64,000 bases of DNA from Tubulanus polymorphus (taxonomy: Eukaryota > Animalia > Nemertea). Under the pieces are notes generated by a model, which saw only the letters and a list, made by a program, of their open reading frames with translations, was not told where the DNA came from and searched no databases. Made by a program: the position numbers and the translations under genes. The stretch lies in the NCBI RefSeq assembly GCF_964204645.1, contig NW_027437434.1, forward strand, positions 62,001 to 126,000. The letters run 5' to 3'. Shown here piece after piece: positions 35,401 through 57,133 of this stretch; position 1 is the first letter of the stretch, and each line of letters opens with the position of its first letter.

Positions 35401-36289
35401 TGTTATGATTGTTATACATGTTAAGATTAACTCATTGTGCATTTCTATATTACCTTGATTTACTGAAGATCCTCTGACCTACAGCTTTGGGGATCACCTC
35501 ATAATCTATATCTGTCTATGTATGTAGTGTGTACTATTTAGTGGTCAACCATATTATTATTATTAATATTGGATGGTTCTGATTGTTAGAGAAGTAAAGA
35601 ATAAAGGGAGTTAAGTGTATATGGAAATGTATTTTAGATGTTGTTGAAGTTTCTTTTGTGTGAAAGCACCTCTACGGGCGTACTCTTTTATGACCTCCGA
35701 AGTCTATGTCCGAAATCTCCGGTTGGCTCCACACAAAATCCGAATCACACCACCTCGACAGAAAGGAGGTTTCGGAGACTCCAAAAAGTCACGTGACCAA
35801 TAAAAGAGTACGATTGGAGGCAAACGGATTCTCCGATCTGATAAAAGAGTTCGCCCTAGGAAATCATCGTCAGGAGTGCGCTTCAGGCATATTCCCTCGA
35901 CAGGGATCCGAACCTGATGGCATCGATAGACTAAATTACGGTCAAAACGTCCTCTGTATTATGTCCTCTCCGCGCACAATCAGCGGTGGTAGAGAGGGCG
36001 GCACCTTACGATAGTCACCTTTGAACCTGATGTTTAAAAAAATCTGCGGTCTTTGAGTAAATTTCCAATTTCTTCTGACTTTACTGGTTTTCGTCAAATC
36101 TGCGAAATGGTGTTTTTAGAGCTAAAAAGTAAAATATTTTTTTCCAAACCCAGTCAATATTTTTTTGGTTTTTCTGTAGTATATGCCTTAAATTTTCGCA
36201 GTTTGATGACAGTTTTTTGATTGGTAGTTCTATTTCCTAGTAATTATCGTCGGAATACGGAGAAACGGTTGATTTTCGCAAATGTTTGA

Positions 36290-36705
36290 ATAATGATGAT
36301 AACGACAATCTAATAGTTTTTATTATATCTTTAATAATAAATTAGGTTATGGTAAAATAGAAACTAAGGATTTAGAAACATTAAATTTTAATAAATTTCC
36401 GAAATTCTATGATAATTTAAAACAAGAAAATAATAATGGTTGGGTTTATTTTATTTTAGATAATAGTGAAAGATTTAGTAAAGCTGGTATACAAAGAATA
36501 AATCAATCAATTAGAACTTATTTGATATGTATTCTAGGTGCTCCAATAGATCGATTCCAGAAAACATAGTTATCAAAATTATTTAGATAGATATAGATCA
36601 TAGAAGATATAATTAAAACCAATAATGATAAAAAGTCCCATGAAAATACTAAATTAGCTATAACTTGTATAGGAATTGTAATAGGCGGAATATTATATTT
36701 TAAAT
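36290..36705 (+). pseudogene. Remnant of a Polinton accessory protein with a C-terminal membrane anchor
   Basis: GWVYFILDNSERFSKAGIQRINQSIRTYLICILGA...SHENTKLAITCIGIVIGGILYF. Resembles, from recall, an ORF recurrent in invertebrate Polintons. Confidence 0.55.
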
Positions 36706-36737
36706 TTTAATTTTTTATTATATAAATAGATATTCCA

Positions 36738-38645
36738 ATGGATACTTTTGGTGACGCCCCTGGTATAAGTGATGAACCACAACTTGATTTTCCTGATACA
36801 AGTACCAGTAATGATGATGGATCAGCATATAATAATAATTTAAATAATGATGAAGATGATGATCCATCATATAATTCTAGTTTAGCTGATGAAGATGATG
36901 GTGTAATTAATTACGAAACGCGTGAAAGATTTAAAGAATATATGACAGCTCCCGAAAGGAAAGTTATTAAACCCGTAACATTTAGAAAAGATTTAATGAA
37001 TAGAATAGTAAATACAACTGATCCTTATTTGAAAGAGCAATTATATGGAATGAAAAGTAGAGTAATAGATACAATTGCTAACGAATTATTACCAAAAGAT
37101 GTAATAGATAAAGTTGATACAGAAGAAATTGTAATGCAAATTTTAAAAGATGATCCACATTTCATGAATAATTTAGAATTTAAAAATGATGTATGGTTTT
37201 ATAATGTTGAATTATATAACAAAACTGCATCAATACAATTATCTAGAATGGGTCAAGAAAATATTTTTGAACCTGGAGTGCGAGCAGGATCTACAATTGA
37301 ACGTTCAAAAGGTGGTTCAGAATTTCTCAGAATTATATGGAATGCACTCGATAGAATAAATGAAGAAGAACCAAATGTTGGTATTGATATTAACAAATAT
37401 TCCCCATTTAAAATTTAAATCCTACTTATGTTGATCCAGAAATGGAAAAGTATGGAGATCGATTAGATAAATTAAGAACTGCAACACCAGAAACATCGAG
37501 AAGAGATATTCAACAAATTGATAATGATTCAAGCAATTACAATAAGGAAAACATTAAGATAACTTACTGGATACAATGAATTCATTTGAAGAACAGAGAT
37601 GAGAATTCCCCGCGGATCCGCGGTTTCCCGCGGATTTCAGTATTGAAAAATATCAATTTTCCAAATAGTCCAAAAATGATGTAAATTTATGGGGGGGGGG
37701 GGGGGGGTGATGATCTCACTCAATTGGTCCGGCGCGATCGGTAATCAGGTGAACCGTAAAAGCGTTCAGTGCCTGTTTTACTTATCGTCACGTAAAAGTA
37801 TCGCATTTCAATGCATATTCATTGCAACACAGTGATTTTGTATGTACATTGTACTACGATGAGTTTGTATGTATTTTATCGATCGGTTGCAGACACGCAC
37901 GCACAGCAACAGTAGTAACTTATATAGGTCTACTTACTGTTGCTGCGTGTGTGTGGCGAACGCTTTCGGATATTATACACTACTTGGTGATGATTTTTAG
38001 TGAGCATTCATCGGCGCATTTTTACTGCAATAATTCAGGGCTCGACCCGTAATGCATGAGATGCTGAATGTCATCAAATGAGGATGTACCACATTGGAAC
38101 TAGCCATTACCTTCCAAAATATAATAGTCGTTCATGGGTTCGAGATCGCTCTAAGTGCTCGGAAAACGTATTTAATTTCTTAAATTTTCTTGGGGGAGGG
38201 CCCCCAAACCCCCCCCCCCCGAAATAGCTTCGCGCCTTCCGCGCTCGCTAGTGCTGACGGCGTAGCCGTCAGCTGGTTCGCGTATGTCACTCAAGAAAAA
38301 ATAACCCGCGGATTTTACAGGTCGGCGTTCTCATCCCTGGAAGAAGAGATGCATAGTATTTTAGATACACCCGGTACTGAAACTGGAACAAATCAAATGC
38401 AATCTTTATTAAAAAAAGGATTACTTGATTTAAATGAAGAACAATTAAAAATATTTCCTGAACAAGCACGTAGAGAAATTAAAGGTATGCAAGAATCAGC
38501 TGGTGAAATTGCCAATATCAAGATGAGATTTTCTAAAATAACCATGTTAAAAAAAGAATTAACTGACGCAAATGAAGAATTAAAACAATTAGAATTAAAT
38601 AAAGATCTTCAAGTAATTGATGAAGTTGAATATGAATGCACAAAG
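36738..38645 (+). pseudogene. Polinton hypothetical protein (acidic N-terminus, coiled-coil C-terminus); frameshifted and split by MITE 37594-38339
   Basis: ORF 36738-37418 continues after a frameshift to about 37593 and resumes at 38340 (EEEMHSILDTPG...) with the same AT-rich codon style. Confidence 0.65.
37594..38339. mobile_element. hAT-like MITE with 6-bp TSD gaagaa, inserted in the Polinton
   Basis: gaagaa|cagagatgagaa...ttctcatccctg|gaagaa. Confidence 0.85.
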
Positions 38646-38649
38646 TTAG

Positions 38650-39656
38650 CTTTGAAAAAAAAATTAACTATAAAGATTGGACCAGAAACAGTTTTTTCAT
38701 GAGATGATTATAATTTATTTATGCATTATAAAGATTTATGGTTAACAAAAGAAAATAGAAATAATATGATATTTCAAGGCATCCAATCAGAAAACCCTAA
38801 TAAATTAAGATCAAGAGCTAATGACGCAATAGTAACTCGTACCGCAGATAATTTGATTAAAAAGATTTATGGAAGCAAATATAAAATTCCATTAGACTTT
38901 GAATTGATAAATAATAATGCGCCTTTATATAAATATGCAATTCAAGAAGATATTATATTCGAAATAACATTTGCTCCTGTTAATGAAATTGTATTATCTA
39001 GCGTTGTTAAAGATATGGGTTATAAATTATCGAATATATGTTTAGAATATGACACAGTAACTGATGAAAATATTTCAAGTATAATTCAAACTCAATACAA
39101 TCAAGGATTTTCATTATTATATGATTATATTGATGAATTTAAAACTGTAACTATTAATGCAAGTGATGAAATAATTAATGAGAATATCAACTTCTCAAGA
39201 AGATCTATTAAAGGTATATTAATATTTTTTACAATTGCTACATATTCTAATGGCGCAATACAGGTTGATAATTATTATAATCCTGAAATATCAAAAGTAG
39301 AAATAACTATCGAAGGTATAGGAAATGAAATATTCTGTCAAGGAATGAGAATGATAGAACAATGGCCAGAAATTAGAAAATATTTTATGAATGAAAAAAT
39401 TAAATCATCTGAAAATTGTAATATTAATCAAATTGATTATAATACCGGCAATAAATATGCATTATGGTTAGATTTTAGAACGACAGAGGATAACTTATTA
39501 CATGGTTCTGGGAAGAAATTACCGAACACTAAAGATGGAATACAATTATTCATGAAAAAGAAAAAAGGAGACTAAAATTTCAAAATGCACATTTATATTA
39601 TATCTGACGCGCAATCAAATATCATAAATTCTCAATTGAATAGTGTTATGTATTAA
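38650..39656 (+). pseudogene. Polinton/adintovirus major capsid protein (double jelly-roll, hexon-like); N-terminus lost, with premature stops
   Basis: KKLTIKIG..VFS*DDY..YKDLW, YKIPLDFEL, YKLSNICLEYD, RSIKGIL, YNPEISKVEITIEG, YALWLDFRTTEDNLLHGSG, ...IISDAQ...Y*. Confidence 0.85.
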
Positions 39657-39689
39657 AATTTTAGTTTTCATAAAAAAATTCTATAATAA

Positions 39690-40797
39690 ATGGAAGGAGG
39701 AATATATGAAATACAAAGTCCAAGTGAAATGATATCGGATATATATTATATAATACCTTATGATGAATATAGTAAGTATTTTGGAGAATACTTTAATGAA
39801 TTCAATTATAGAATAAGTAAAATAGAAAAGAATATTGAAACAAAAAAGAAGATAATATTGAAACAAAAATAGGATATAAGAATATTGAAACTAAAATAGA
39901 AGATAATTTTGAAACAAAAATAGAAGATAATGTTATACCTTCTACATCGAATAATGATAAGATTGAACCTAAAATAACAAAACCAAAAAGACAAATGAAA
40001 AATATTGTGATGTATGTAAAGAATATAAAAGTTATAAGAGTTGGGCAACTCATCTTAATTCAATCAAGAATAATAAAATTAAGAATAAGAATATAAATGA
40101 ATTGAATAATAATAGTGAAATTGATAATGATAAAACTGAAGAAGATAATAATAATGATAAATATTGTGAAGAATGTGATATTTAAGTCGTAGTAATTTTT
40201 CAAAACACAAATTAACTCAAATACATTTGGATAATGTAGAAAGAAATATATGTGAAAAGTGTAATGTTGTTGTATTACCTAAAGATAAAATTAAACATGA
40301 TAATTCTTTTGAGCATTCATTAAAAACTGCTGATCCAAAACACCTTTATAGAATACCAACTGGATTTTTTGATATCGAAAATAATAATCATAGGAAATTA
40401 TATAGATCAATATTCATCGATTATGTAAGAAATAATAAAAAAAAGTATTATCAGATGTAAAAAATCGTTGGACAAATATAAATGAATTTCCAGATGATTG
40501 TTCAGGTATACTTAATTTCATCAAATTTAAGGGAGAGATTTTTTAACAGAATTGAAAAAAGTTGCTGAAGATTTTATAAATAAAATTAAAAATGATGCAA
40601 AAAATAAATATAAAAATATAAGTGAAGGTCAATTAAATCAATATATCTATTTAAATTATGAATTGTTTGCTAAAGGTTTGAGGGCTATCAATAGTTATCA
40701 TACCAAACAATTAGGTGAAGTTGAAGGTAATAGAAAATTAGAAGAATTAAGAGATGCATGGAACAAATTTTTGTTAGAATTAGAATCAGAAAAGTAA
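39690..40797 (+). pseudogene. Polinton multi-C2H2 zinc-finger protein, fragmented
   Basis: YCDVC...WATHLNS, YCEEC...KHKLTQIH and ICEKC...KHDNSFEH motifs spread across ORF fragments. Confidence 0.6.
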
Positions 40798-40812
40798 TTT
40801 AAAATATGAATA

Positions 40813-41704
<892 letters not shown>

Positions 41705-41719
41705 ATTATTTGAAATACC

Positions 41720-43453
41720 TTATTTTATAAATTTATATTCATAGGGAAATTGTAGTCTCAGTATTAATTTTGAAACTTTATTACTTTTTAATTTATTCAT
41801 ATATTTATCATGTAATTCAGTAGGTATTATTTTATTTTCTTCCAATGATTGTTAAATAGATTTTCTATCTTTATTGTAGAATAATACTAAAAATCTAATG
41901 TTTTCTCTAAAATCCTTAACAATTGAACTATATTTTTGATTCAAAACCCATGTTGTAATTCCAAAATGTCTCCCAGAGAAAGCTTAATAGCATAGTTCAC
42001 TTTCTCTAAGTTTTGAATCATGTAAATTTGCACAATCATCTATAATGAATAATGTGTTTGATCCTTTATAAAAATCTAATGCTATTTTTATACAATTATC
42101 TCAATTTTCTTTAACTGTTTTAGGATCTAATATAATAAACTTTTTTGACGCCTTATAAAACGTTACCATTATGAAACTTAAACAATGTTAACCATTCAGC
42201 GTCATTTTACAAACGACAACCGTAAATCGATGTGCAAAACGTCACAGGTTTATGTGTACACATACAAGCTATTTGGCAAAATATTATTGATAAAGATGTA
42301 GAATGGCTCCCTGTGATTATATAATGACCTCTATTTGAACGTCGAAATGTTATATTGCATTGAATATCATGATAAGAGGTATTGTAATAGTAAAGGATGT
42401 ATGATTATATCAGGAGCGGCAGGCATAAATAGAAATGATAAGTAAATCGGATTATTCGGTTAAATGGCGGATGTATACACGATTTGGAAGTCTGATATAA
42501 AAGTCAGACCCTGACATGGGGATGCTAGTGGAATGACGAAGCTATCTACGATCTGAGTAGGGCCGGCGTGAATTTCATCGGCGGCTACAAGCGGTCTATA
42601 TAAAAACGTGTAAACAAATAATTTCAATATTCAAATGTTTTAGAAAATATGTTCGATATTAGGGGTATGCAGGTTTCATGAGATTAGCAATCTATAATAG
42701 CATAGCTGTCATATACGGCTCCGCGTCCGCTGATGGCATGTGTATAAGGTGACAATTCAATTCAATACTTTATTGATCCTTATTACATTGAAATTCCGGG
42801 ATGAAATTCCCAAATTCAATAAAGTTACAAATTTTAGAATAAGAAAATACAAGACACATGGGTAATTCATACAGAATAACATGAATAAGTTATTTAAATG
42901 ACGATGTCAACCCAGACTCAAGTCTAGGATATCGAGTGACAGCCAAACCGGGCCCCGGGACCGGGCCGGCTGGCTACACGATATGCTCGAAGTCATGATG
43001 AAGCAGACATCAGAAGAGCTCTTTCTTCAACCATGGAGGCAATGAAGTTGCAGACCAGCTTAGAGCAAAAGTGAATCGAAGTCGGTCACAAGTTGACATT
43101 TTTTTTTAAATTAGACCAGTCGAAGACTGTATCATCGCCAAATCTCATAATTCCCCAAATTTCTTAAAACTTCGATTTCAAATTTGCAATTCCACATTAG
43201 CTTATCCCAGAAATTCTACATTTTTTCGCAGGCGTCAAATAATTTATTAAAGTTAATTTTCTTGTTTATCTTAACTATATCTCTATTATATGTTTTATTC
43301 ATTTCATAAGTGGGGCAGAATAATATAATATTATCAAAAGGATTCTCATAAATAGTTTCTAACAAGTCTAATATGTAATGTGTTTTACCACAGTTGGTTA
43401 CCCCAGTAACTAACATTATTATGCGGTTCAAATATAAATAAATCTTTATTCAT
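41720..43453 (-). pseudogene. Polinton A32/FtsK-like DNA packaging ATPase, split by an insertion
   Basis: Walker A GVTNCGKT (about 43400). After the insertion: Walker B LFIIDD, SGRH and LNQKY..IVKDFRENI. Three in-frame stops and a 5' frameshift. Confidence 0.9.
42135..43247. mobile_element. 1.1-kb TIR element with TA TSD inserted in the ATPase gene
   Basis: ta|ataaacttttttgacgcct...aggcgtcaaataatttat|ta. Removing it restores the frame KKINFILDPK. Confidence 0.75.
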
Positions 43454-44531
43454 TTATTCTTATAATTTTACTAGATAAAATCCATTCATTGAATTTATCA
43501 TCATACCCTTTATATTTCACCAGAGAATACTTTTTCCTTTAAGAGTTTTTTGTTTTCAATACTTTTTCTATTTTGTATTCTATTTCATCTGGATTTGGTA
43601 CAAGTGATAATTCTTGTTCATAGAAATAACCTAATATTTCTTCATTTTTTAAATCTTCTAATTTATAAACAAATGGTTTAGTAAGTATTATCTTTTTAAT
43701 CTTGAATATTTTTTCGGTAAAATTTGGAGTATAACCTTTATAAAAGGTTTTTCTATATTTATATATTCTAACGTATTGTCCAATTTTAAATTTAGGTTCT
43801 CCGAAATCATGTGTAACAATGGCTCCATAATAATTATTCCAAACTATTTCTGAATTATCTTCTTTTCTAGCTTGTATCGGTTTCATATTTATAGCACTAT
43901 GTTTAGAATTATTTTAACCTTTCACTAAATCATCTAATACATCGATATATTTATATGTTTCATTGGCAGTAAAATATTTCCACATTCTAGTTTTCAATGT
44001 TTTATTAAATCTTTCTATGATAGATGCTTTTTTATCTGAGTGTGTTGAAAAATACTCTTCATCGTTATCAGATAATAGTTTTTTAAAATGTTTATTATAA
44101 AATTCCTTACCTTCATCAAATTGTATCTTACCTGGAATAGCTTCTTTAAATATATTTCTAAATGCATTTGTTACTTCTATACCAGTTTTATTTTTGATTG
44201 GAATTGACCATGCGTATCTACTGAATATATCTATAACATTTAATATCCAGAAATATCCTTTGTTGTATTCTTCTAAGTTCTTCATGTCAATCAAATCTGC
44301 TTGCCATTGTTGATCAATGTATGAAACCATAACTTTTCTCGTTAAATAATTTTTATCCATTTTCTTATGGATTTGATATGTTGGTTGATTTTGTAACCAT
44401 ACTCTTAGTTCACTATATTTTATATTTTCTTTATCAGATTTAATTCTATCCCATAATTCTGAAACACTAGAATATGATACTTCACTCTCTGGAATATAAT
44501 ATAAATCTCTTAAATATTGTTCTTTTTTCAT
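43446..44531 (-). pseudogene. Polinton retroviral-like (rve) integrase with C-terminal chromodomain
   Basis: WQADL, DIFSRYAW, QFDEGKEF, IERFNKTLK (DDE triad); FKIGQYVRI, GYFYEQEL, LVKYKGYDDKFNEWI. Stops at 43914 and 43539. Confidence 0.93.
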
Positions 44532-44537
44532 CTTATT

Positions 44538-44897
44538 TTAATCCGTTAAGAATAATCTTGGTTTATTTTCAATGACTTTATCATTTGACTTATTTTCTGG
44601 TATAATAGGTTTATTATCGGAATCATTATTATTAGATTTGAATTTATATTTATATATTACGCCAGAAAATATAATAACTGTTACTAATCCAATTGTAATA
44701 TATAATTTATTATTACTTCCAGCATTAGATGAATCAGATGGATTATCATTCGAATCAATAACAGATAATTTCTGTGGTTCATTTATATCAGTTAATTTCT
44801 TTTTCTTTGCTTTTCTTTAAAGAAGATCTTCTACCCAATTCCCTTTCCCATTTAATTTCTTTTCGAATCTAGGTTTCTTCTTAATATCATCACTCAT
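44538..44897 (-). pseudogene. Small Polinton protein with basic N-terminus and a single TM helix; frameshifted
   Basis: MSDDIKKKPR...ELGRRSSLKKAKK...LYITIGLVTVIIFSGVIY...LFLTD*. Confidence 0.55.
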
Positions 44898-44971
44898 TTA
44901 TTTTACTTAATTTTTGTTCTGATTCAATATCTTCTGATTTATTTTTATCTTTACATACTATAGGTTTAATG

Positions 44972-45454
44972 TTAGAAAATGTTATAACTACAGTAAAAAA
45001 TCAATGTCATTATTCCACCTAATTGGAATGGAGCGTATCCAACCCATTTCTGTAATTCTCTCATAAATAAATAATCATTCTTTAAATCACTGTATAATTT
45101 ATTTTCATCATCAATTGGTATAATCCGGTTACATAATTTGGAGTAACATTTTATAATACCATCACTTATAGAATCGTTTATTCTAGCTAATCTAGCTTCT
45201 TCATATATTTTGAAATGTTTTATTACTTGATCTGGTTTCATGTTATCTAATTCTTGAAAAGTTATAATTCTATTTAAGAATTCCTTAGATTTCCCACCAG
45301 CAATCAATAGTTCTAGATGGTGCTTACATGTTGAATAGTATTCATAATCAATATTATTTTCAATTTTGGTTGGAATATCCTTATTATCACTAATGCCCAA
45401 ATCATCTAAGGTTTTTTCAATATCAATACTATTCTTACTCGATTTCTTTGACAT
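44972..45454 (-). CDS. Polinton conserved hypothetical protein (C-terminal hydrophobic segment)
   Basis: 160-aa ORF with LIAGGKSKEFL...YEEARL...LKND, located in the viral module. Confidence 0.6.
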   Translation of the reverse strand: MSKKSSKNSIDIEKTLDDLGISDNKDIPTKIENNIDYEYYSTCKHHLELLIAGGKSKEFLNRIITFQELDNMKPDQVIKHFKIYEEARLARINDSISDGIIKCYSKLCNRIIPIDDENKLYSDLKNDYLFMRELQKWVGYAPFQLGGIMTLIFYCSYNIF

Positions 45455-46141
45455 TTATATTAGCGAAAAAGTAGAAAAAATTAAACTTATTCTTCAAATG
45501 ATACTAATAACTCTTTGGGTTAATACTAAATTGACTCGGTTAGTTAAAGTTAAAGAATTTCTATTCAAATCTTATCAAAATACAAAGTATTCCCTTTTTG
45601 AAAAGAAATGTTAGATTTTGAATAAAAATATAATAAAATTCACTAGCTACTTGAAGTTATTGTTTTTTTAAATATTTTTTATTTAAATTAGGATTTAGAA
45701 TATCTCACTACCTTTGTCTATCTATAGGAGCAGTTAATATAAGTGTCCAGATAAGTCATTTCGGATCCTTGATATTAAACCTAGTTAATAATCAGAAATA
45801 TTAGAATAGTTAGTTTAATTATTGTTTTACAACCGTTTCTAATTATTCATTATTCAAAATTCTTTGCTTTAATTTTTACAGTCGTTTCTAATTATTACGT
45901 TGAAAGTTGGCAGCACTGAGTGAATTAGATACTGAAATGAAAATTTGAACTGGAATTTGAATTTAATATTCAATTAACATGGATAATTGATTACTGATTT
46001 GATTAAAAATTCGATCATAATTAAGTTAAAAATCCATAATTCATTCATCAGTTTTCATTCTTATATTCTTTTCATTCGGAATAATTTAGAATTTCAAATA
46101 ACGTAAACACCGTTTATATTGACTTCGGTGTTTTAGCTAAG

Positions 46142-46148
46142 TATATAA
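46142..46148 (+). promoter_or_regulatory. TATA box about 31 nt upstream of the structured RNA
   Basis: TATATAA; the first paired G is at 46173. Confidence 0.5.
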
Positions 46149-46172
46149 GGCAATTCATTCGACCACTGAAGT

Positions 46173-46461
46173 GCCGCCGAGCCTGGCTTGCAGGGGCATT
46201 TCGAAAATGCACCTTTGTCCACCCTCTGTGGTTCTCCTTCAGTTTCGACTTTCGATCCTCCCTTCGGGGGTTAAGGGTTGATAGGAAACGCATTAGGCGC
46301 CTTAAATATAATGTGTTTCCTGTCAACTATTGAAGGAGAATTGGTGAGGCGTGGGTCACAGGGGTGTAAATAGAAATGCTTGGGGATAAGTATCTTGTGG
46401 CGCCTCTCTATAACGGGATGCTTATCCCCTAGAAACTCTGCGAGTCAGGTCGGGTGGTTTT
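46173..46461 (+). ncRNA. Candidate Polinton-encoded structured ncRNA (~290 nt) with twin GGCGCC loops
   Basis: Seven manually paired helices with G-U wobbles, paired 5' and 3' ends, cUUCGg tetraloop, TTTT at 46458-46461. Confidence 0.8.
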
Positions 46462-46742
46462 GCTAAAACTTACCTTAAAACTGAAATTCCTTTTAATCAC
46501 GAGAGAGAATGTATCCTGTGTGTATTGTATGTACTGCGTGCTTAATCCAACTGCTAGCTATCCAATATAACATAACAACAAATGGCAACACCTGTTTGAT
46601 CGATCAATTTTCAAATTAATTACTCCCGTGGATTGAGCGTGTGGCAGATGTTAGGTATATACACATGGTTATAGTTGTTCGTAAAACGACTAAGTGCTTA
46701 TATATACACGTGTGACTCGAGTAGAGTTCTTATCATAAACGC

Positions 46743-47019
46743 TTAAGATTCAACGTGTTTTTCATTCTGTGTTGAATTCCATAATTCAACAAATGCCTTT
46801 GCTTTATCCAGTTGATCTAAATATAATTTCATATCTAGTTTGTTTCCTTTCCTAATATTTTCAAATTTTTCTAAAGGATCTTTGCTTACCATCTTTCTGA
46901 GTTTTATAAGTATAATATTCCGAGAGTTGTTTATTCAATTCACATTTTGAACATTTCTTATGATAAATATTAACAACACTATTTGTAATATTAATAGTTT
47001 GTGATTGTTCCGGCTCCAT
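46743..47019 (-). pseudogene. Small Zn-ribbon protein (KCSKC..K.LSEY....DG motif), about 90 aa, one frameshift
   Basis: MEPEQSQ...KKCSKCELNKQLSEYYTYKTQKDGKQRS.../ENIRKGNK...HVES*. Absent from the ORF track because of the frameshift. Confidence 0.55.
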
Positions 47020-47050
47020 TTATTAAACATATTTTTTTACTAAAATTTGA

Positions 47051-50014
47051 TTAACACGCTAGAATTCTTTTCATAATCTCATTCTCTTTTGTTTCTTCCC
47101 TTCTAAATTTTAAGTATTCTTCTAAATTGCAACCATACGCGACTGTATGAATTCCATCATCTAAAATATATCTTTTATCGTCAAATGGATTTAGACTAAC
47201 CTTTTCAATTTCTTCAATAAACATCTCGTGGTACTCAGATCTTAAACATTTCATCCTGTGTTTTCTTACTTCTTCATTAAATATACAATTGATGTAATCT
47301 TTAAAATGAATATTCTTTTCAACAACGCTTTTGGTAATTCCTTTTAACTTTTTAGATTCATGAGTTTTGGTTTTATATGAATACATTTTAGATCGAATTC
47401 CAATGAATTCAATCATTTCTTCACCTCCTAATTCATCTTTGAATTTACCGGACACATTTTTATTATCATTGTAAAACAATTCATGATCTTTTGGATAATT
47501 ACTTAAGTCGAAATGATGTTTTAATGTTTTTAAATCATCTGTTATGTTATTAGTTTTTATCTTTAATATGTAACTGTCGGTATCAAAATATAAGATTTCT
47601 ATATGCTTTTCTCCAAAATGAGGTTGTAATACGTTATAATAGAATTCATACATTAATAATTTTGATATTTCTAAAACTGTAGCACCAATATAAATTGGTT
47701 TATTAAATTTTATAGAAGTTCTTCTCATTTTAACTGCAGCTAAATTTTCATCAAATATTCTGTTACCTATGAACTTAGGATATGTTTGTAAATGCCTTAA
47801 CCTTTTACCATTACTAACTAACTCAATATCATTTCTATTTCTAACATTTTCACAAGTCTTACCATAGAATGCATTATTCATTAACTTGAAGAAATCTTTC
47901 TAAAAATCAGTATTAGCTTTAGTTCTCTGTTTGGTGTTAAAAACTATATATTTTTCTAACCATTTAGATTGACTGAATGAAATATATCTACGTACTTTTT
48001 TTAGACTCATTCCTCGATTCAAATATAATTTTAACGTTCTATAATGCACTACATGATTATATTTATCTTCCTGAGTTACCATTAACCTTTCTGTATGAAT
48101 ATGATTTTCGGGTTTAATTCTTTTTTGGTAATTTGATAATTCTTCATGTGTTACAGTTTTATATTCGGGGCAGTAAGCTAGATTTCTAGATTTAAATTTT
48201 CTAACTTCAGGAGGATATTCTGAATCTACAACAAAGAAGTAACCAACATTTATCTGCTAAATCAAATTCTTGTTTATCTTCTTCTGTCATTATAATTTCT
48301 TTATTTTCATTTAACTTTTCATTAAATTTTATTTCATATTCAATTAATAAGTCACAAAAATGATTGATAACATTTTCATTTCTATAATGATAATATTCAA
48401 TTTCAATTAGTTCTGCATAATTAGATTTAATATATAATCCCAAAGCTGCAGCACTTTGATAGATCTTTTTAATAGTATTTGTTATTAGAGGATCTGAATA
48501 ATCAATTATATCATTTTCATTAGAATTTAATTTCTTTCTTTTATGATATATTTCTTTTCTATCTTGGTCAGTTAATTCTTTATTTAGTGATTCAAAATCT
48601 CCATATATTACAAATGGTACTTTATTCTTGTAATCATATTTTTTAAATTCTAATAATTTATCCTTTTCATTTGGTAAAACTATTTTACAATAATCATGAT
48701 TTTCACATAATTGTTTATGATTCAATAATGCACTTTCATTACTGAATTTATGTAAACATTTTCTACATAGATATATTTTATTATCAAAATCATTTTCTGA
48801 TTTGAAAAATAAATCAATTCTTTTAATCCACGTATAATGATTCTCATAATGTAATATATCTATAACATCATTTGAATCATAATCTTTTGATAAGTATAGA
48901 GGTTCTGATGTATAATTTTCAATATTATTACCTTTTGTTCTTGGTAATTTGACTAAATCAAATACATTTATCTTTATATTATTATCTCTTTCTATTTTTG
49001 GAATATCTTTAATTCTAACAGGATAATTATCTATCTTATAATTATTTTCAAATGGTTTATAATTTGATACTCTACAAATATTATCAGTTGCAGGATGTAA
49101 GCAACTAATTATTCACCATAGAAAGCATTAGTTTTAAATGGTAATTTGATATAACTTGATCCATTAATATAATCATCTTTATAATATGATAAATTATTTT
49201 CATCAATTGGTTTAGATTTAGTTAATTTATTATATTTTGTGTTATAAACATGTTAATTCATAAATATTATTTCATCGAATATTAAACCAGATCCTTCAAA
49301 ATATTTCTCTTCCATTTTACTTTTTATTTCATTATAACATTTATCTAATTTATCATCTACATGTTGTTTTGACATAATATGTTGTGAATGAGAATTTATA
49401 TTATATATTGGTTCATCTTCAGATTTTAAAAATTTAACTTTAACTGATATACCAATCTTAGGGTATTCAACACCAGTAATTATTTTTATAATACTTTTCA
49501 TATTTTCTAAATGTTTTTTATTTTCTTCTAATGTTTCACTTTTATGAAATTTAAATTCAATAGCAGCTGGTCCAATATTGCTTTCAAATGCTTCGGTTAT
49601 TTCTGTTTCTTTTTTATTATCTAATGAATTAATATAATTTCTTACATCTTCCATGTATGGCCTTTTATTGTTTATTTTATTTTTTATTCTTTTAATTGTC
49701 TTCTGTTTCTTATCATCATCATTATCAAAATAATCTTCACCTAAAATATCATTATTCATATTTCTTATATGTATTTTAGATTTTAAATGTTCTTTATAAT
49801 ATCTTTTGTTACTGAATGATTGATTACATGTATCACATTTGTATATTTCTTTTTCATTCTTTAATTCATCTGATTTAGTTTCTAATATATCATCTTTATA
49901 TTCTCTTTTTTATTTATTTTCTAAGTGAGATTTAGTTTTATTGTGTCTTGCTTATTGAGATTTATCTATATCAATTTTACATGTTGAACAGTGGTACTTC
50001 TTATTTGCTTCCAT
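47051..50014 (-). pseudogene. Protein-primed family B DNA polymerase (pPolB) with N-terminal C2H2 fingers; internally deleted
   Basis: YHCSTC..H..KSH and YKCDTC..H..KIH fingers, exonuclease I VIYGDFES, GYFFVVDSEYP, NNAFYGK, YFDTDS, GKFKDE, KLKGI, PFDDKRY. Confidence 0.95.
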
Positions 50015-50030
50015 TTTAATACTAATTTTT

Positions 50031-50270
50031 TTATTAGGGTTTTCAGTTATTTCACAGAAAACCCTATTGATATCCGCGTGATTATTATTAGGGTTTTCTG
50101 TTATTTCACAGAAAACCCTATTGATATCCGCGTGATTATTAGGGTTTTCTGTTACATCACAGAAAACCCTATTGAGATTCGCGTGTTTCTTATTATTATT
50201 ATTATTATTAGGGTTTTCTGTTATTTCACAGAAAACCCTATTGATATCCGCGTGATTATTATTATTATTA
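50031..50270. repeat. Four tandem copies of a palindromic unit (tagggttttctgt..acagaaaaccctatt) with aat spacers; end of a repeat also present at 17770-18130
   Basis: Direct reading. About 50200-50560 matches the reverse complement of about 17770-18125. Confidence 0.85.
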
Positions 50271-51800
50271 TTTTCTTCCACACTATTTTTACCAAAAGAA
50301 CATAGGCTTTGTTACCTTACCGCTGTTTCATATACAATCCATATAATATCGTTCAGCTCACTGAGATCTACAAATAGCCCGCGTGTTTTTTCACGAATCA
50401 TCGTTACAAAAGCGCTGTCGGGCCGTAAACATCGAAAATCTAGCCCCATTCAATGGGGCGACATGTTTTTCGAGTCGTCATCCCGAAATCAACCCGCAGG
50501 CCGACTGTCACTTCGATTATCAATTCAAGTATAAATGAACTAATTTATTGCCGCAGACTTCACATTCAGTCGCGGTCTTCAGACAGTGATTTTAACAATA
50601 GCCCATTTTCCTCATCAAATCATATTACCGATACACTGGAAATTTACTACTTTAGATTTTAAAAGCACTGTCGAGCCGTAAACATCGACGAATCGACGTG
50701 TGTTACTACATCGTCGTTCCGGGGATCAGCTGCGAGTTTCTCCTCATCATGAAACTACGTGTAGTGAGCCTGTTATTCCAGCCTCGTATTCAGATATAGT
50801 GTGTACACACTGTACAGCTGCCTGTAGATACTGGTTGACATGAAATGTATAACTTAGCATGACGGAGCGATGATAACTAACGTTAACGTTAGTATATAGC
50901 ATCGGATACTGATACTCAAATTTCTCTGAAACAAAAACTCCAGGTTTCGTAAAAACTGAGTATATTACTGAGTAGGCTCGATTGTTCAAGTAGATATATA
51001 TAGTGAATGTCTGTGCATCGATTTGTTCAGGTATTATTTCAACTCACGATTGCATCATTCCGCGACAATTCAATATTTTGTTTTTATCGCCCGCGACGAT
51101 TCAATATCTTGTTTTTGTCGCCCGAGACAATTCATTATTTTGGTTTTATCGCCCGCGACAATTCATTAGTTTGGTTTTATCGCCCGCGACAATTCATTAC
51201 TTTGGTTTTATCGCCACCGACAATTCATTATTTTGGTTTTATCGCCCGCGAAAATTCATTAGTTTGTTTTTGTCGCCCGCGACAATTAATTAGTTTGGTT
51301 TTGTCGCCCGCGACAATTCAATATTTTGGTTTTGTCGCCCACGAAAATTCAATATTTTGGTTTTATCGCCCGCGACAATTCATTACTTTGGTTTTATCGC
51401 CACCGACAATTCATTATTTTGGTTTTGTCGCCCGCGACAATTCATTATTTTGGTTTTATATTTTGTTGTTGTCGCCCGCGACAATTTTCTTTTTTGGTTT
51501 TATCGCCTGCGACAATTCAATATTTTTGTTTTATCGCCCGCGATTATTCATTATTTTAGTTTTGTCGCCTGAGACAATTCACCATTTTGGTTTTGTCGCC
51601 CGCGACAATTCACCTTTTTGGTTTTGTCGCCCGCGACAATTAACCATTTAGGTTTTGTCGCCGGCGACAATTCACCATTTTGGTTTTGTCGCCCGCGACA
51701 ATTCATTATTTTGGTTTTATCGCCCGCGACAATTCATTAATTTTGATTTATAGCCCGCGACAATTCATTATTTTTGTTTTGTCGCCCCGACAATTCTTTT

Positions 51801-54423
51801 TAGGCCAGCCGTAGGCTGAGCCTATTACTATACAAATGGAGCGAATTTAAATGACATTGTTTCCACACAAAAGGCTCTTTTGCTTGCCAAGTGAGGGCAT
51901 ATTCGAACGAATCACGTATTTAAGCGTAATCCATTCTCGGAATCGTAGCGAGCAGAATTTTGAAATAGGCTTTCATAAAAATGTTTTCTGCATTTTTCAC
52001 GAAAATAAAATCGGGAAAATTTCAATTTTTATCAGCCAATCAGGAAGTTGTGTCTTCCCTGTGATTGGTTTATCTAAAAATATCAGCAGCTGTTCACGTG
52101 AATTATCGTGATTTCATTACTGGCGCTTTTGCGCATGACGTCATGTATCAACACGCGACAATACTTCCTTGTTCGCTACGTGTTCGCTGATTGGCCCATT
52201 TACTGGGAAATTCCACAGAAGCCTAATGTGGTTTGTTACAAGCGCTGTGATTGGCCCGACCTGATTCTGGCACGGCTTTAGCTTAGTGGGTTCGAATCCC
52301 TTGACGGGAGAAGATGATGGATCCTATCGATGCTATCAACAAATAAGTTTCCCGGTTGGGCAGCTGCGGATATCTACCGAAAGTGTTGCGGTTCGATATT
52401 TCGAGGTTTCTTTGAATTTTGGAGTGATATTGAAATCGGGTAAACACCGGCGGTAGATTGTGGTGAAAACCCATTGCTTGATATTTGTACTACTTAATCA
52501 ACGAAAAGCGTCGGGACCGCGCCAGGAGTTTTCGCGATTCAAGTAGCTCAATAGCCTACTTCTTCGTGTTCGTCCACCTCCGCAATTTTCACTCCGCCGA
52601 TCTCTGACACGGCTCTGTCGCCGTCGGCGCTGTGATTATTACTATTATTACTATTCGTACCACCAAAATTTTTTATTTCTATATCAGGGAGGTCTGGAGA
52701 ATAAAAAAGTCAAAATTTGGATATCACATTGGCCTGATTTCATCGAATAAGTCGACCATGGTTGTTACGTTTCCGTACGAATTACCACCAAAACCGTCTG
52801 AACAATTTTGTCACAACCAACATTTCGTTTACAGAAATCAGGTGCTCACGTGAACCCGCGGTATCGTCTATTGTTTTACTTCCGGGTTTTATTTTAAGAT
52901 TTAAAATCGTATTTCAAGATCGATTTCTTTATTTTAGTCTTTAGTTGATTTGGTGTTTGGGAGGAATTTTTATTTGCTCTACAGAAAATTCATCCTTGAC
53001 AATTGCGCAAGGTTCGCAAAAAATTGCTTTTCCCAAATCGAGTGTATGAACTTGATATGCTAATTAGCCATGTGCTCGAATTGCAAATTCAATCAAATTT
53101 TATTCTGCAAAAAAAATGTTAAATCCAATTCGCTTTCCGAGAGTTAATGGTATGCTGCATGGAACAAAGTTGTTCTGAGATGGGTCTTGAAGCTATTGAG
53201 TCGAGAGATAACCATCTAGATAGTTCGTGAGAGTTCCAAAGTTTTGAAGACGCTTCAAGGTAATGTCTTGATATTTGGTTTATACGTGTATCTACCCTAG
53301 ACACATCTTCAGGCCAAAAACCGGCCCTGTCAGATTCAAGATGGCCGACTGGCAGCCATTGTTGTTCGCCAAAAACAGCACTTTTTACACATTTTAGAAG
53401 TTTTCGAGGGGAATTTTGAAGACACTTTTATCAATAACCTTGATCATTCGTATATATTTGTATCCCCCAAGGGCCCATCGGCATGAGAAAAATTGGGTCG
53501 ATCGGACTCAAGATGGCCGTCCTGTGACCTTTTTTGTTCCCAAAAATGTTAATTTTGGCCTGAATTCTGAGTCCTGTAGCTTTCTAATGGTGTGCCATTT
53601 TTCATTGCAATTTGTAATGGGTATTCTTTGGAAAAGGATCTTTTATATCCGAGAGGGTATTTTTGACCAGGCAATTATGACGCAATTGGCGGCCATCGGC
53701 ATGAGAAAAATTGGGTCGATCGGACTCAAGATGGCCGTCCTGTGACCTTTTTTGTTCCCAAAAATGTTAATTTTGGCCTGAATTCTGAGTCCTGTAGCTT
53801 TCTAATGGTGTGCCATTTTTCATTGCAATTTGTAATGGGTATTCTTTGGAAAAGGATCTTTTATATCCGAGAGGGTATTTTTGACCAGGCAATTATGACG
53901 CAATTGGCGGCCATCTTGGGGTCATCAGTACTCATTCGTAGGTGGAAAAAAAGTTTAGCCACATCATTTTGATACTTAAGCATATTTTGCTACCATAATT
54001 AATTGGAAAGTTGTAGCTCATGACATGTTCTATGATTGAGGTGAGTTTCAAGCTCAGTGGTTTTTGTTTATGGCCACCAGGGGGCGTTGAACATTACAAT
54101 AACTTAGTATTTCTATATTACATTCGTAGCTATGCATATTTTGCTACCATAATCAATTGGAAAGTTGTAGCTCATGACATGGTCTATGATCTTGGTGAGT
54201 TTCAAGCTCATTGGTTTTTGTATATGGCCACCAGGGGCGTTGAACAATACAATAACTTAGCATTTCTATATTACATTCGCTCCTGCTGTCTGTGTTAACA
54301 CACGATTGTACTATGTAAATGACATTGAGCAGGGAGTGTATATTGATAAATATAACCCACAGATTACATCATTTATAAAAAGCAAATCTGACAGGCTGGC
54401 CATTGTGCCCCTTGGGGCTCTTG
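51801..54423 (+). mobile_element. Composite Helentron/HINE-like element (family A ends, family B interior, 221-bp tandem duplication at about 53470-53915)
   Basis: aggccagccgtaggctg start; ggctggcc...gccccttggggc end; inserted in a satellite T run. Confidence 0.7.
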
Positions 54424-55181
54424 GTTTGGTTTTGTCGCCCGCAACAATTCAATATTTTGGTTTAGTCGCCCGCGACAATTCAATATTTTGGTTTTGTCGC
54501 CGGCGATATAATTCATTAATTTTGTTTTATCGCCCGCGACAATTCAATATTTTGGTTTTATCGCCCGCGACAATTCATTATTTTGGTTTTATCGCCCGCG
54601 ACAATTCATTATTTTGGTTTTGTCGCCCGAGACAATTCATTATTTTGGTTTAATTGCCCGCGACAATTCAATATTTTGGTTTTATCGCCCGCGATAATTC
54701 ATTATTTTGGTTTTATCGCCCGCGACAATTCATTATTTTGGTTTTATCGCCGGCGACAATTCAATATTTTGGTTTTATCGCCCACGATAATTCATTATTT
54801 TGGTTTTATATTTTGTTTTTATCGCCCGTGCCAATTTTTTTTTGGTTTTGTCGCCCGCGTCAATTCAATATTTTGGTTTTATCGCCCGCGACAATTCATT
54901 ATTTTGGTTTTGTCGCCCGAGACCATTCATTATTTTCGTTTTATCGCCCGCGACAATTCATTATTTTGGTTTTGTCGCCCGCGACAATTCATTATTTTGA
55001 TTTTGTCGCCCGCGACGATTCAATATTTTGTTTTTGTCGCCCGAGACGATTAATTAGTTTGGTTTTGTCGCCCGCGACAATTCAATATTTTGGTTTTATC
55101 GCCCGCGACAATTCATTAGTTTGGTTTTGACGCCCGCGACAATTCAATATTTTGGTTTTGTCGCCCGCGACAATTATTTTT

Positions 55182-56425
55182 CAGTCCACTTGGGACTTTA
55201 GTCCCAGCGGGCTATTGCGTTCACTTTTCATCCGTCCGTCCGTCCATAGACGGAATCCAGTTATTTTGGGAAGTTTTGAAGACGCTTCAAGGTAATGTCT
55301 TGATATTTGGTTTATACATGTATCTACCCTAGACACATCGTCAGCCCAAAAACTGGCCCAGTCAGATTCAAGATGGCAGCCATTGTTGTTTGCCAAAATC
55401 AGCACTTTTTAAACATTTTCGAAGTTTTCGTGGGAAATTTTGAAGACGCTTTGATCAATTACCTTGATCTTTCGTTTATATTTGAATCTACCAAAGGCCC
55501 ATCAGCATAAGAAAATTGGGTCGATCTGACTCAAGATGGCCGTCCTATGACCTTTTTAGTGCCCTAAAATGTCAATTTTGGCCAGAATTCTAGGTTACGT
55601 AGCTTCCTACTGGTTTGCCATTTCTCATTGCAATTGCTGATGGGTATTCTTTAGAGAGGGATGTTTTATACCTGGGACAGGTATCTTTGATCAGCCAATT
55701 ATTACGCAATTGGCGGCCATCTTGGTGTCATCAGTACTCATTCGTAGGTGGGAAAAAGTTTTTCCTCATTAAATTGATACCTAAGCATATTGTGTTACTA
55801 TATTCGATTGGAAAGTTGTAGCCCATAACGTGTTCTATGATTTTGGTGAGTTTCAAGGTCATTGGTTTTTGTATGTGGCCATCAGGGGGCGTTGAATAAT
55901 ACAATAACTTAGTATTGCTATATTTGTACCAAGGCATATTTTGTTACCATGATCAATTGCAAAGTTGTAGTTCATTACATCGTCTATGATTGTGGTGAGT
56001 TTTTAAGGACATTAGTTATTCCATATAGTCACCAGGGGGCGTTGAATAGTAGAATGGCTTAGCATTTCCTTATTAGATTGGTACCTAGGCATATTTTGTT
56101 ACTATGATCAATTGCAAAGTTGTATTTTATGACATGTACTACGATTGGGGTGAGTTTTAAGGTCATTGGGTTTTGCATATGGTCACCAGGGGGCGTTGAA
56201 TAGTAGAATAACTTAGTATTTCCATATTAAATTGGTAACGAGGCATATTTTGTTATCACCATCGATTACAAAATCATAGCTGCTCATATGTTCTATGATT
56301 GTGGTGGGTTTCAAGGTCATTGGTTTTTGTATATGGTCACTAGAGGGCGTTATGTATTGAAATTGTTAGATTGTTGAGCATTTGAAACCACTTCTTCAGT
56401 GAGCATGGTGTCCCTGGACCCCTAG
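55182..56425 (+). mobile_element. Helentron/HINE-like element (family B) inserted in the satellite
   Basis: Same ends and internal ~150-bp array as 5242-7427. Confidence 0.75.
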
Positions 56426-56717: not shown

Positions 56718-57133
56718 TACGGAAGCGATAAAGGGCCTCGAGTTGTCGCGTTCAAACTCGACAAGTCGCCATATTTATGTCGATTTATCGCGATATATCG
56801 TGTCAAGTTCACATGAATATGTCTACATATCGTCACGTTTTCACGACAAATTTCGCTTATTTGCTCATTTTCCACGGGACAAGCCGTCATTTGAAGACAT
56901 GTCTAAATGTAAGATGAGGACGCCAGTAATATGACGACTGAGTTTCAAGTCGTCATGAATATGTCGACTTGTCTTGAGGAAAATGGTTGAGAAAACGAAA
57001 TATGTCGTCAAAACGTCACGATATATCGACATATTCATGTCGACTTGACGCGATATATCGCGGTATGTCGACAATAATATGGCGACTTGTCGAGTTGGAA
57101 CGCGTCATCTCGAGGCCCCTTATCGCTTCCGTA
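56718..57133. mobile_element. Palindromic MITE, TACGGAAGC TIRs, TSD gatatag
   Basis: gatatag|tacggaagcgataa...ttatcgcttccgta|gatatag. Partial copy at 57230-57385. Confidence 0.85.

Follow-up and report, generated by a model that had tools for sequence, protein, structure and literature searches.

A predicted RNA fold with twin palindromic loops in a likely solo LTR inside a decayed Polinton-type element: a candidate dimer-linkage element

Within a 64,000-nt window (the whole stretch of Tubulanus polymorphus DNA that was analysed), a decayed Maverick/Polinton-type element hosts an 852-bp insert that is likely the solo LTR of an LTR retroelement. On its + strand, this insert encodes a real, evolutionarily supported RNA structure of ~290 nt, in which two hairpins with unrelated stems each present the self-complementary hexamer GGCGCC in a large loop. 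We tentatively propose that these twin loops, placed in the likely R/U5 fold of the retroelement, may act as a double dimer-initiation site (DIS) for the co-packaging of genomic RNA—a reading that we regard as the most likely of those weighed, though short of probable. The copy in the window is itself probably a non-functional remnant. Coordinates are collected in Table 1.

Table 1. Features of the insert, its RNA fold and the host element (window coordinates)
Feature	Position	Strand	Remarks
Insert, likely solo LTR	45901-46752	+	852 bp; TGAA...TTCA ends
Left target-site duplication, ACGT	45897-45900		4 bp
Right target-site duplication, ACGT	46753-46756		L130 Polinton homology runs up to 46755
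TATA-like box, TATATAAG	46142-46150	+	~25 nt (about 25 to 30) upstream of the fold; likely U3 end; putative promoter
Predicted RNA fold	46172-46463	+	Likely R or R/U5; ~290 nt; three-way junction
Hairpin 1	46276-46328	+	20-bp stem 46276-46295/46309-46328; loop 46296-46308
GAGGCGU	46346-46352	+	3' strand of helix with 46221-46226
Hairpin 2	46382-46429	+	17-bp stem 46382-46398/46413-46429; loop 46399-46412
GU-rich tract with UGUA	46508-46540	+	3' of the fold; possible downstream polyadenylation element
Decayed Maverick/Polinton-type element	36000-50350		AT-rich block with broken ORFs; ends approximate; hosts the insert
Capsid-like ORF	38703-39575	+	Tentative; a 74% identical homologue groups with double-jelly-roll clusters
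A32 ATPase fragment	43216-43449	-	Profile score below cut-off
rve integrase	43914-44537	-	Profile match
Broken family-B-polymerase-like gene	~47051-49900	-	Without profile match

A stable predicted fold exposes two palindromic loops

Refolding and stem alignment confirmed the starting observation of the first-pass annotation, namely two hairpins with unlike stems and like loops; when aligned against shuffles, the stems of hairpins 1 and 2 proved unrelated (p 0.24 and 0.27). Loop 1 reads GGCGCCUUAAAUA (13 nt) and loop 2 reads GGCGCCUCUCUAUA (14 nt), both opening, as had been noted, with self-complementary GGCGCC (46296-46301 and 46399-46404) and closing with AUA. The likeness covers the entire loop (GGCGCCU...AUA), and in both loops the hexamer sits at the 5' edge, directly on the stem, with a 3' linker of 7-8 AU-rich nt. 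With the closing A, the hexamer of loop 1 extends to an 8-nt palindrome, AGGCGCCU. Folding, also with the remaining insert included, left the hexamers open, with unpaired probabilities of 0.97-1.0 and 0.84-1.0. When random loops of 13 and 14 nt with this composition were drawn 2 million times, the chance that both contained a common palindromic 6-mer was 2.2e-4, and the chance that both opened with one was 3e-6. The hexamer as such is not enriched in the window (3 observed vs 2.18 expected), and what is unusual about it is its placement alone.

The hairpin region first delimited (46276..46429) is real but forms only part of the structure, the whole fold extending over ~46172-46463. This fold comprises 111 pairs, 21 of them G-U, and its 5' and 3' ends pair with each other (46170-46195 with 46436-46464). 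Hairpin 1 is reached along a 41-bp arm by way of a second junction; hairpin 2 stands on another arm. Over 46140-46480, the + strand has a stability z-score of -9.71 (- strand, -5.33), against -0.2 to -2.5 in adjoining 290-nt windows. RNA parameters separate the strands widely (-155 vs -100), with a smaller gap under DNA parameters (-66 vs -51). GC content is 50% in the fold vs 24-35% in its surroundings. The linker GAGGCGU had been called unpaired and offered as a pseudoknot or switch partner of loop 2; in the full fold, 6 of its 7 bases are paired (unpaired probability 0.0), which leaves such a switch unsupported. We regard the proposed switch as an artefact, because the earlier reading used a truncated region. 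The single bulged base of this linker differs in 71% of sister-copy reads.

Rfam returned 0 matches at the gathering score and 4 with E 4.4-9.7, none of them credible; ARAGORN predicted 0 tRNA genes, A/B box patterns were not found, and a Smad-type DNA element pattern gave no match. Two small, weakly predicted side hairpins lie at the second junction (46244-46275; pair probabilities 0.4-0.55), one of them with a UUCG-type loop. A T4 run (46458-46461), resembling a Pol III terminator, marks the very 3' end of the fold and is also present in the diverged subfamily described below.

The insert is likely a solo LTR

The insert has a perfect terminal inverted repeat of 4 bp, with 6 of the 8 terminal bases complementary, and of 7770 end pairs tested, 45901/46752 alone joins TG..CA termini to a 4-6 bp duplication. 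We consider it a likely solo LTR because it combines TG..CA ends with the ACGT duplication, carries a TATA box before the fold and is missing from related loci; the same reading follows from its presence in multiple copies in the host species and its absence from 5/5 related Polinton loci. A 4-bp duplication would presumably fit Ty3/Gypsy-type or ERV-type integrases. The fold lies downstream of the TATA box and inside the likely LTR; it is likely R or R/U5, and would be transcribed from the putative TATA promoter. Neither a PBS, a PPT nor a coding internal region was seen at the insert. AATAAA is absent from the whole 852 bp, and immediately before the fold no poly(A) hexamer could be recognised; in the GU-rich tract, TGTA occurs at 46510, 46521, 46526 and 46530.

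Near each end of the insert lies one copy of TGGCA(G/A)CAC, in the same orientation (45908-45916 and 46583-46591), possibly a transcription-factor site. Two other identities were considered and dropped: a DNA transposon with 8-bp ends, for which the flanking duplication is absent, and a retrozyme, for which there is no hammerhead match in Rfam and a single CUGAUGA, which lies amid AT-rich sequence at 46051 of the minus strand. The LTR start had 0 matches in viral contigs, and an exact 20-mer gave 2 matches in prokaryote genomes, each confined to those 20 letters and attributable to chance. The twin-loop pattern was matched at least 122 times over at least 120 loci in viral contigs, and among the matches listed none had both hexamers unpaired and none showed blastn similarity; the loop-2 pattern occurred at 3 loci in viral contigs, again with no similarity. 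The element family may already be catalogued in repeat databases such as Repbase or Dfam.

Five relatives of the host element lack the insert

The surrounding block is probably a decayed Maverick/Polinton-type element, whose polymerase pieces we take to be family B-like from motifs recognised by eye. For comparison we used five related loci from metagenome contigs (L130-L134), with 57-87% amino-acid identity. The insert had no blastn or tblastx match in 5/5 of these loci, which are also without GGCGCC and contain no 200-nt window above 32% GC. The genes flanking the insertion site are 114 bp apart in L131 vs 1089 bp here; the insert breaks a Polinton ORF, and L130 homology ends at 46755. On the left, the flank at 45695-45770 matches L133 and, weakly, L130 and L131 (shuffle p 0.006 and 0.40). 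Judged from these alignments, the right edge of the empty site is better defined than its left edge. Similar sequence was likewise found in 0/9 more distant polymerase-linked viral loci (L001-L009).

These comparisons bear directly on the suggestion that the RNA belongs to the virus-like element, which was not borne out: it lies inside an 852-bp insert with its own ends and duplication. A Polinton-encoded packaging RNA, ringing the ATPase motor in the manner of phi29 pRNA, would account for the location between Polinton genes, ~2.7 kb from the A32 ATPase fragment. Yet the insert interrupts a Polinton ORF and is absent from the five related Polintons and from the distant viral loci, and the ATPase here is itself a fragment. 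From these alignments a Polinton packaging RNA appears largely refuted; we give it next to no credence, and the earlier link to phi29 pRNA and the packaging ATPase finds no support. More generally, an eye-catching RNA structure among the genes of an endogenous DNA virus need not be viral and can have come in with a passenger insertion.

Several further features of the host element and its vicinity were observed. Identity to L130-L134 reaches 68-87% in the capsid, the ATPase and most integrase pieces, and gene orders differ. The gene order around a 160-aa ORF, to which viral contigs offered no relative, is an example: it comes after the ATPase in L133 and before the integrase in L130-L132. Inside the Polinton, a long (AT)n microsatellite (40920-41100) is followed by ~156-bp and other degenerate repeats (41197-41686), and tandem repeats of 51-69 bp, open as a repeated peptide, occupy its polymerase-side end (50003-50264). 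Beyond it lie 31-bp satellite arrays (50943-51875 and 54355-55006), more duplicated blocks at 53239-56346, and a MITE-like 173-bp inverted repeat (83%; 56718-57133) amid related palindromic repeats that run to ~58000.

Sister copies preserve pairing in the stems

Sister copies were recovered at 80% likeness from 1.9 Gb of raw reads of the host species (one species, two studies); depth and variant sets cover 46050-46600, with the insert ends outside. Read depth over the fold is 436-793, and sets of differences co-occur among the changes listed. The insert thus belongs to a multi-copy family that comprises two or more subfamilies. For 46262-46440, all counts given here refer to the best 40 of 52 change rows, of which at least 27 reach 5% of reads, 13 of them at paired sites. 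Pairing is retained by 11 of these 13 common paired-site changes, a count biased upward in that the fold was predicted from the present copy. All 11 transitions retain pairing (expected share 0.55, p ~0.0014), and rarer paired-site changes do so in 1 of 5 cases (Fisher p 0.022 against the common ones, at the 5% cut). Read as a minus-strand RNA, pairing would be retained by 4/13 of the common changes. This strand difference in pair-keeping, together with the G-U pairs (21/111), indicates an RNA of the + strand.

In the basal stem, the pair C46183-G46448 is changed on both sides on one contig (run X3, record 19), among the changes listed. Judged by eye, most of the basal stem can still be formed by loose read ends from the diverged subfamily. 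Skipped stretches at 46264-46401 (4 reads) and 46332-46384 (5 reads) represent deletion derivatives among the copies; one such derivative loses hairpin 1 and ends within the loop 2 hexamer.

The hexamers vary less than other unpaired sites

Conservation of the hexamers across sister copies is suggestive. At no hexamer site (0 of 12) does variation reach 5% of reads, compared with 13 of 42 other unpaired sites (one-sided Fisher p 0.023; best 40 of 52 rows). Three common loop changes within the same rows all fall in the 3' halves and leave the two loops as alike as before or more alike. The diverged subfamily accounts for ~30% of hairpin 2 reads; it differs at several letters of the stem and at one of the loop, and GGCGCC is kept in loop 2; at hairpin 1 of this subfamily no alignment was obtained, and its loop 1 is unseen.

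Among the changes listed, the loop 1 hexamer carries four rare ones, at 3-4% of reads each, two of which hit G46296. An old, low-depth copy represented by ~3-4% of reads (X1 contig 3, 46278-46348) has three changed loop letters, two of them in the hexamer, and its loop 1 is non-palindromic; a link to the loop 2 of this copy was not obtained. With regard to the expectation that relatives would keep a palindromic hexamer, no common change fell at the 12 sites, but one rare copy had lost the palindrome of loop 1. No compensatory change between loops 1 and 2 occurs among the changes listed, and loop co-variation is uninformative here because an invariant palindrome cannot co-vary.

A candidate dimer-linkage element and its alternatives

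We propose that transcription from the TATA box would start near the fold, placing it in the R/U5 of genomic RNA, where the GGCGCC loops of one genomic RNA could kiss those of a second copy, and that the resulting loop-loop dimer might direct the co-packaging of two retrotransposon RNAs. The fold exposes a GC-rich palindrome in a hairpin loop, as a DIS does, and the 6-bp loop-loop duplex is predicted at -14.1 kcal/mol, a value that leaves out loop strain; loop 1 could pair with itself over 8 bp. If the hexamer stacks on the 5' strand of its stem, a long 3' linker would be needed, and the 7-8 nt AU-rich 3' halves would fit this geometry. The data are compatible with a kiss between molecules or within one, but loops that are identical in the hexamer and self-complementary would suit pairing between copies better. 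The analogy to a retroviral DIS drawn in the first-pass annotation thus fits in that the RNA lies in a likely LTR and its hexamers carry no common change, whereas the loop pairing itself is a prediction. The AUA likeness at the 3' ends of both loops is not explained by pairing alone, and counts against the proposal. As an extension that we hold doubtful, the LTR fold might join genomic RNAs into closed dimers, into 5'-3' circles or into higher rings, and so into a multimer resembling those of pRNA that would have evolved independently; such assemblies are conceivable because the RNA, with two interchangeable loops, is bivalent and because the fold, if in R, would stand at both ends of the genome.

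Among the alternatives, we consider it unlikely, though worth weighing, that the same LTR fold has its loop 1 kissing loop 2 within one molecule, which would compact the RNA into a platform for nuclear export or 3'-end formation; in this version, the paired ends would also bring an upstream signal near the GU-rich tract, as has been suggested for HTLV/BLV with their long R. The arm lengths of 41, 20 and 17 bp would in principle permit such a kiss, the musD MTE requires an intramolecular kiss (PMC5767303), and the R structure of HTLV/BLV is hypothesised to bridge to the poly(A) signal (PMC12789967). A role in 3'-end formation would also suit the missing AATAAA and the GU/UGUA tract, but no recognisable poly(A) hexamer precedes the fold, hairpin 1 would have to unstack from its own arm, and an intramolecular kiss demands mutual complementarity only, so that identical palindromes favour pairing between copies. 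The likeness of the whole loop, which the three common changes leave intact or enhance, would also be expected if the two loops were sites for the same protein, be it Gag/nucleocapsid or a host factor, with an incidental palindrome. The MPMV CTE offers a known case of twin loops that bind protein. We nevertheless judge a protein site distinctly unlikely, in that it fails to predict a self-complementary GC-rich hexamer (2.2e-4 by chance) and the variable loop sites are the non-palindromic ones.

It is improbable that the loops are alike by chance, or from an old duplication of one hairpin, with no selection acting. The evidence for conservation is weak (p 0.023, a single species, with loop 1 covered in one subfamily) and one copy has an altered loop 1, both in keeping with such neutrality; against it, the loops match though the stems are unrelated, and each hexamer contains a CpG, yet shows no common change. 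Equally little can be expected of two further readings. The loops might pair with another GGCGCC-bearing RNA, such as the element's own lysine-type PBS or the 3' end of primer tRNA-Lys, and so capture or mask the primer: Drosophila gypsy has a PBS starting TGGCGCC as well as a second tRNA site (PMC1635307), and loop 2 with its closing U reads UGGCGCC. The complementarity, however, amounts to 6-7 nt only, loop 1 is preceded by A and not U, and the element's own PBS is unseen, all of which make primer pairing quite improbable. We give similarly low weight to a free ~290-nt RNA polymerase III transcript, comparable to VA RNA, that would oligomerise or act as a dsRNA decoy and end in the TTTT at 46458. 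Such a transcript would be in keeping with the TATA box at about -25 to -30, with the pairing of both ends and with a T4 run right at the 3' end, which the diverged subfamily retains and which has no internal counterpart in this copy; A/B boxes and tRNA or Rfam matches are nevertheless lacking, a T4 run occurs within the fold (behind 46172) in the diverged subfamily, and LTR anatomy already accounts for the TATA box.

If the extension to closed dimers or rings is correct, the twin loops would also be, in the literature searched, the first defined hairpin-loop dimer linkage in an LTR retroelement outside vertebrate retroviruses. In the literature read, RNA dimerisation and selection in LTR retrotransposons are poorly defined beyond yeast Ty1/Ty3; in the literature searched, neither an LTR with twin palindromic loops nor a Polinton RNA was described. 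A compact, covariation-supported element of 290 nt with two exposed palindromic loops would allow a direct in vitro test of dimerisation.

Comparison with known systems

The phi29 pRNA contains a three-way junction with two loop-bearing arms, whose loops are mutually complementary and not palindromic. The present fold likewise has a three-way junction with two loop arms; it differs in that it is not encoded by the host Polinton, has no Rfam match and carries palindromic loops. Against the dimer-linkage proposal, unpaired 5' purines precede the hexamer in the HIV-1 DIS, whereas the hexamer here starts at the stem without them.

Among LTR retrotransposons, Ty1 uses palindromes (PAL) for dimer formation (PMC4974528). 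Its PAL and 5' pseudoknot, like the musD MTE, provide precedents for LTR-retrotransposon RNAs that use palindromes or kissing (PMC4974528, PMC5767303); those elements lie mostly outside the LTR, whereas the present fold is wholly inside, and the comparison is one of description and not of sequence. The long R of HTLV-1/BLV (RexRE) resembles our element as a large paired-end fold in an LTR with no canonical poly(A) hexamer inside (PMC12789967), but here there is no upstream AATAAA and no known Rex-like protein, and in the literature covered, twin palindromic loops were not found described for the HTLV-1/BLV R. Helenus, Ajax and Cassandra (TRIMp3) also carry structured, small-RNA-like sequence in their LTRs, and animal Helenus shares the 4-bp duplication (PMC10886601). 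In these elements it is the promoter that is conserved and not the fold, and the LTR of Helenus measures at most 323 bp vs 852 bp here (PMC10886601). In contrast to Helenus/TRIMp3, our insert has no tRNA/5S match and no A/B boxes, and an LTR of the Helenus/Ajax/Cassandra kind was ruled out (ARAGORN 0, Rfam none, no A/B boxes).

The closest parallels come from retroviruses, where dimers start at GC-dyad palindromes in hairpin loops (PMC12789967). As in HIV-1 SL1, the MMTV pal II and PBS palindrome, and the MPMV Pal SL, a GC-rich loop palindrome would here lie near the 5' end of a retroelement RNA (PMC4264320, PMC5874298, PMC12789967), and in MMTV the GGCGCC within the PBS palindrome has been implicated in loose dimers (PMC4264320). 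Two points weigh against the proposal. Known DIS hairpins are usually in the leader, often past the PBS, whereas the two palindromic loops here are inside the likely LTR (likely R/U5), measure 13-14 nt and are candidates for dimer formation. A cautionary case is the palindromic loop of HIV-1 TAR, in an R region, which failed compensatory tests for intermolecular kissing (PMC5874298). MLV possesses twin hairpins with identical loops that pair between genomes (PMC5874298). Its SL-C and SL-D match our element in having two hairpins with unlike stems and matching loops able to pair, but bear GACG tetraloops in Psi, compared with 6-bp palindromes in large loops on the arms of a three-way junction here. 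By analogy, the twin-loop element would work like a retroviral DIS or the double hairpin of MLV.
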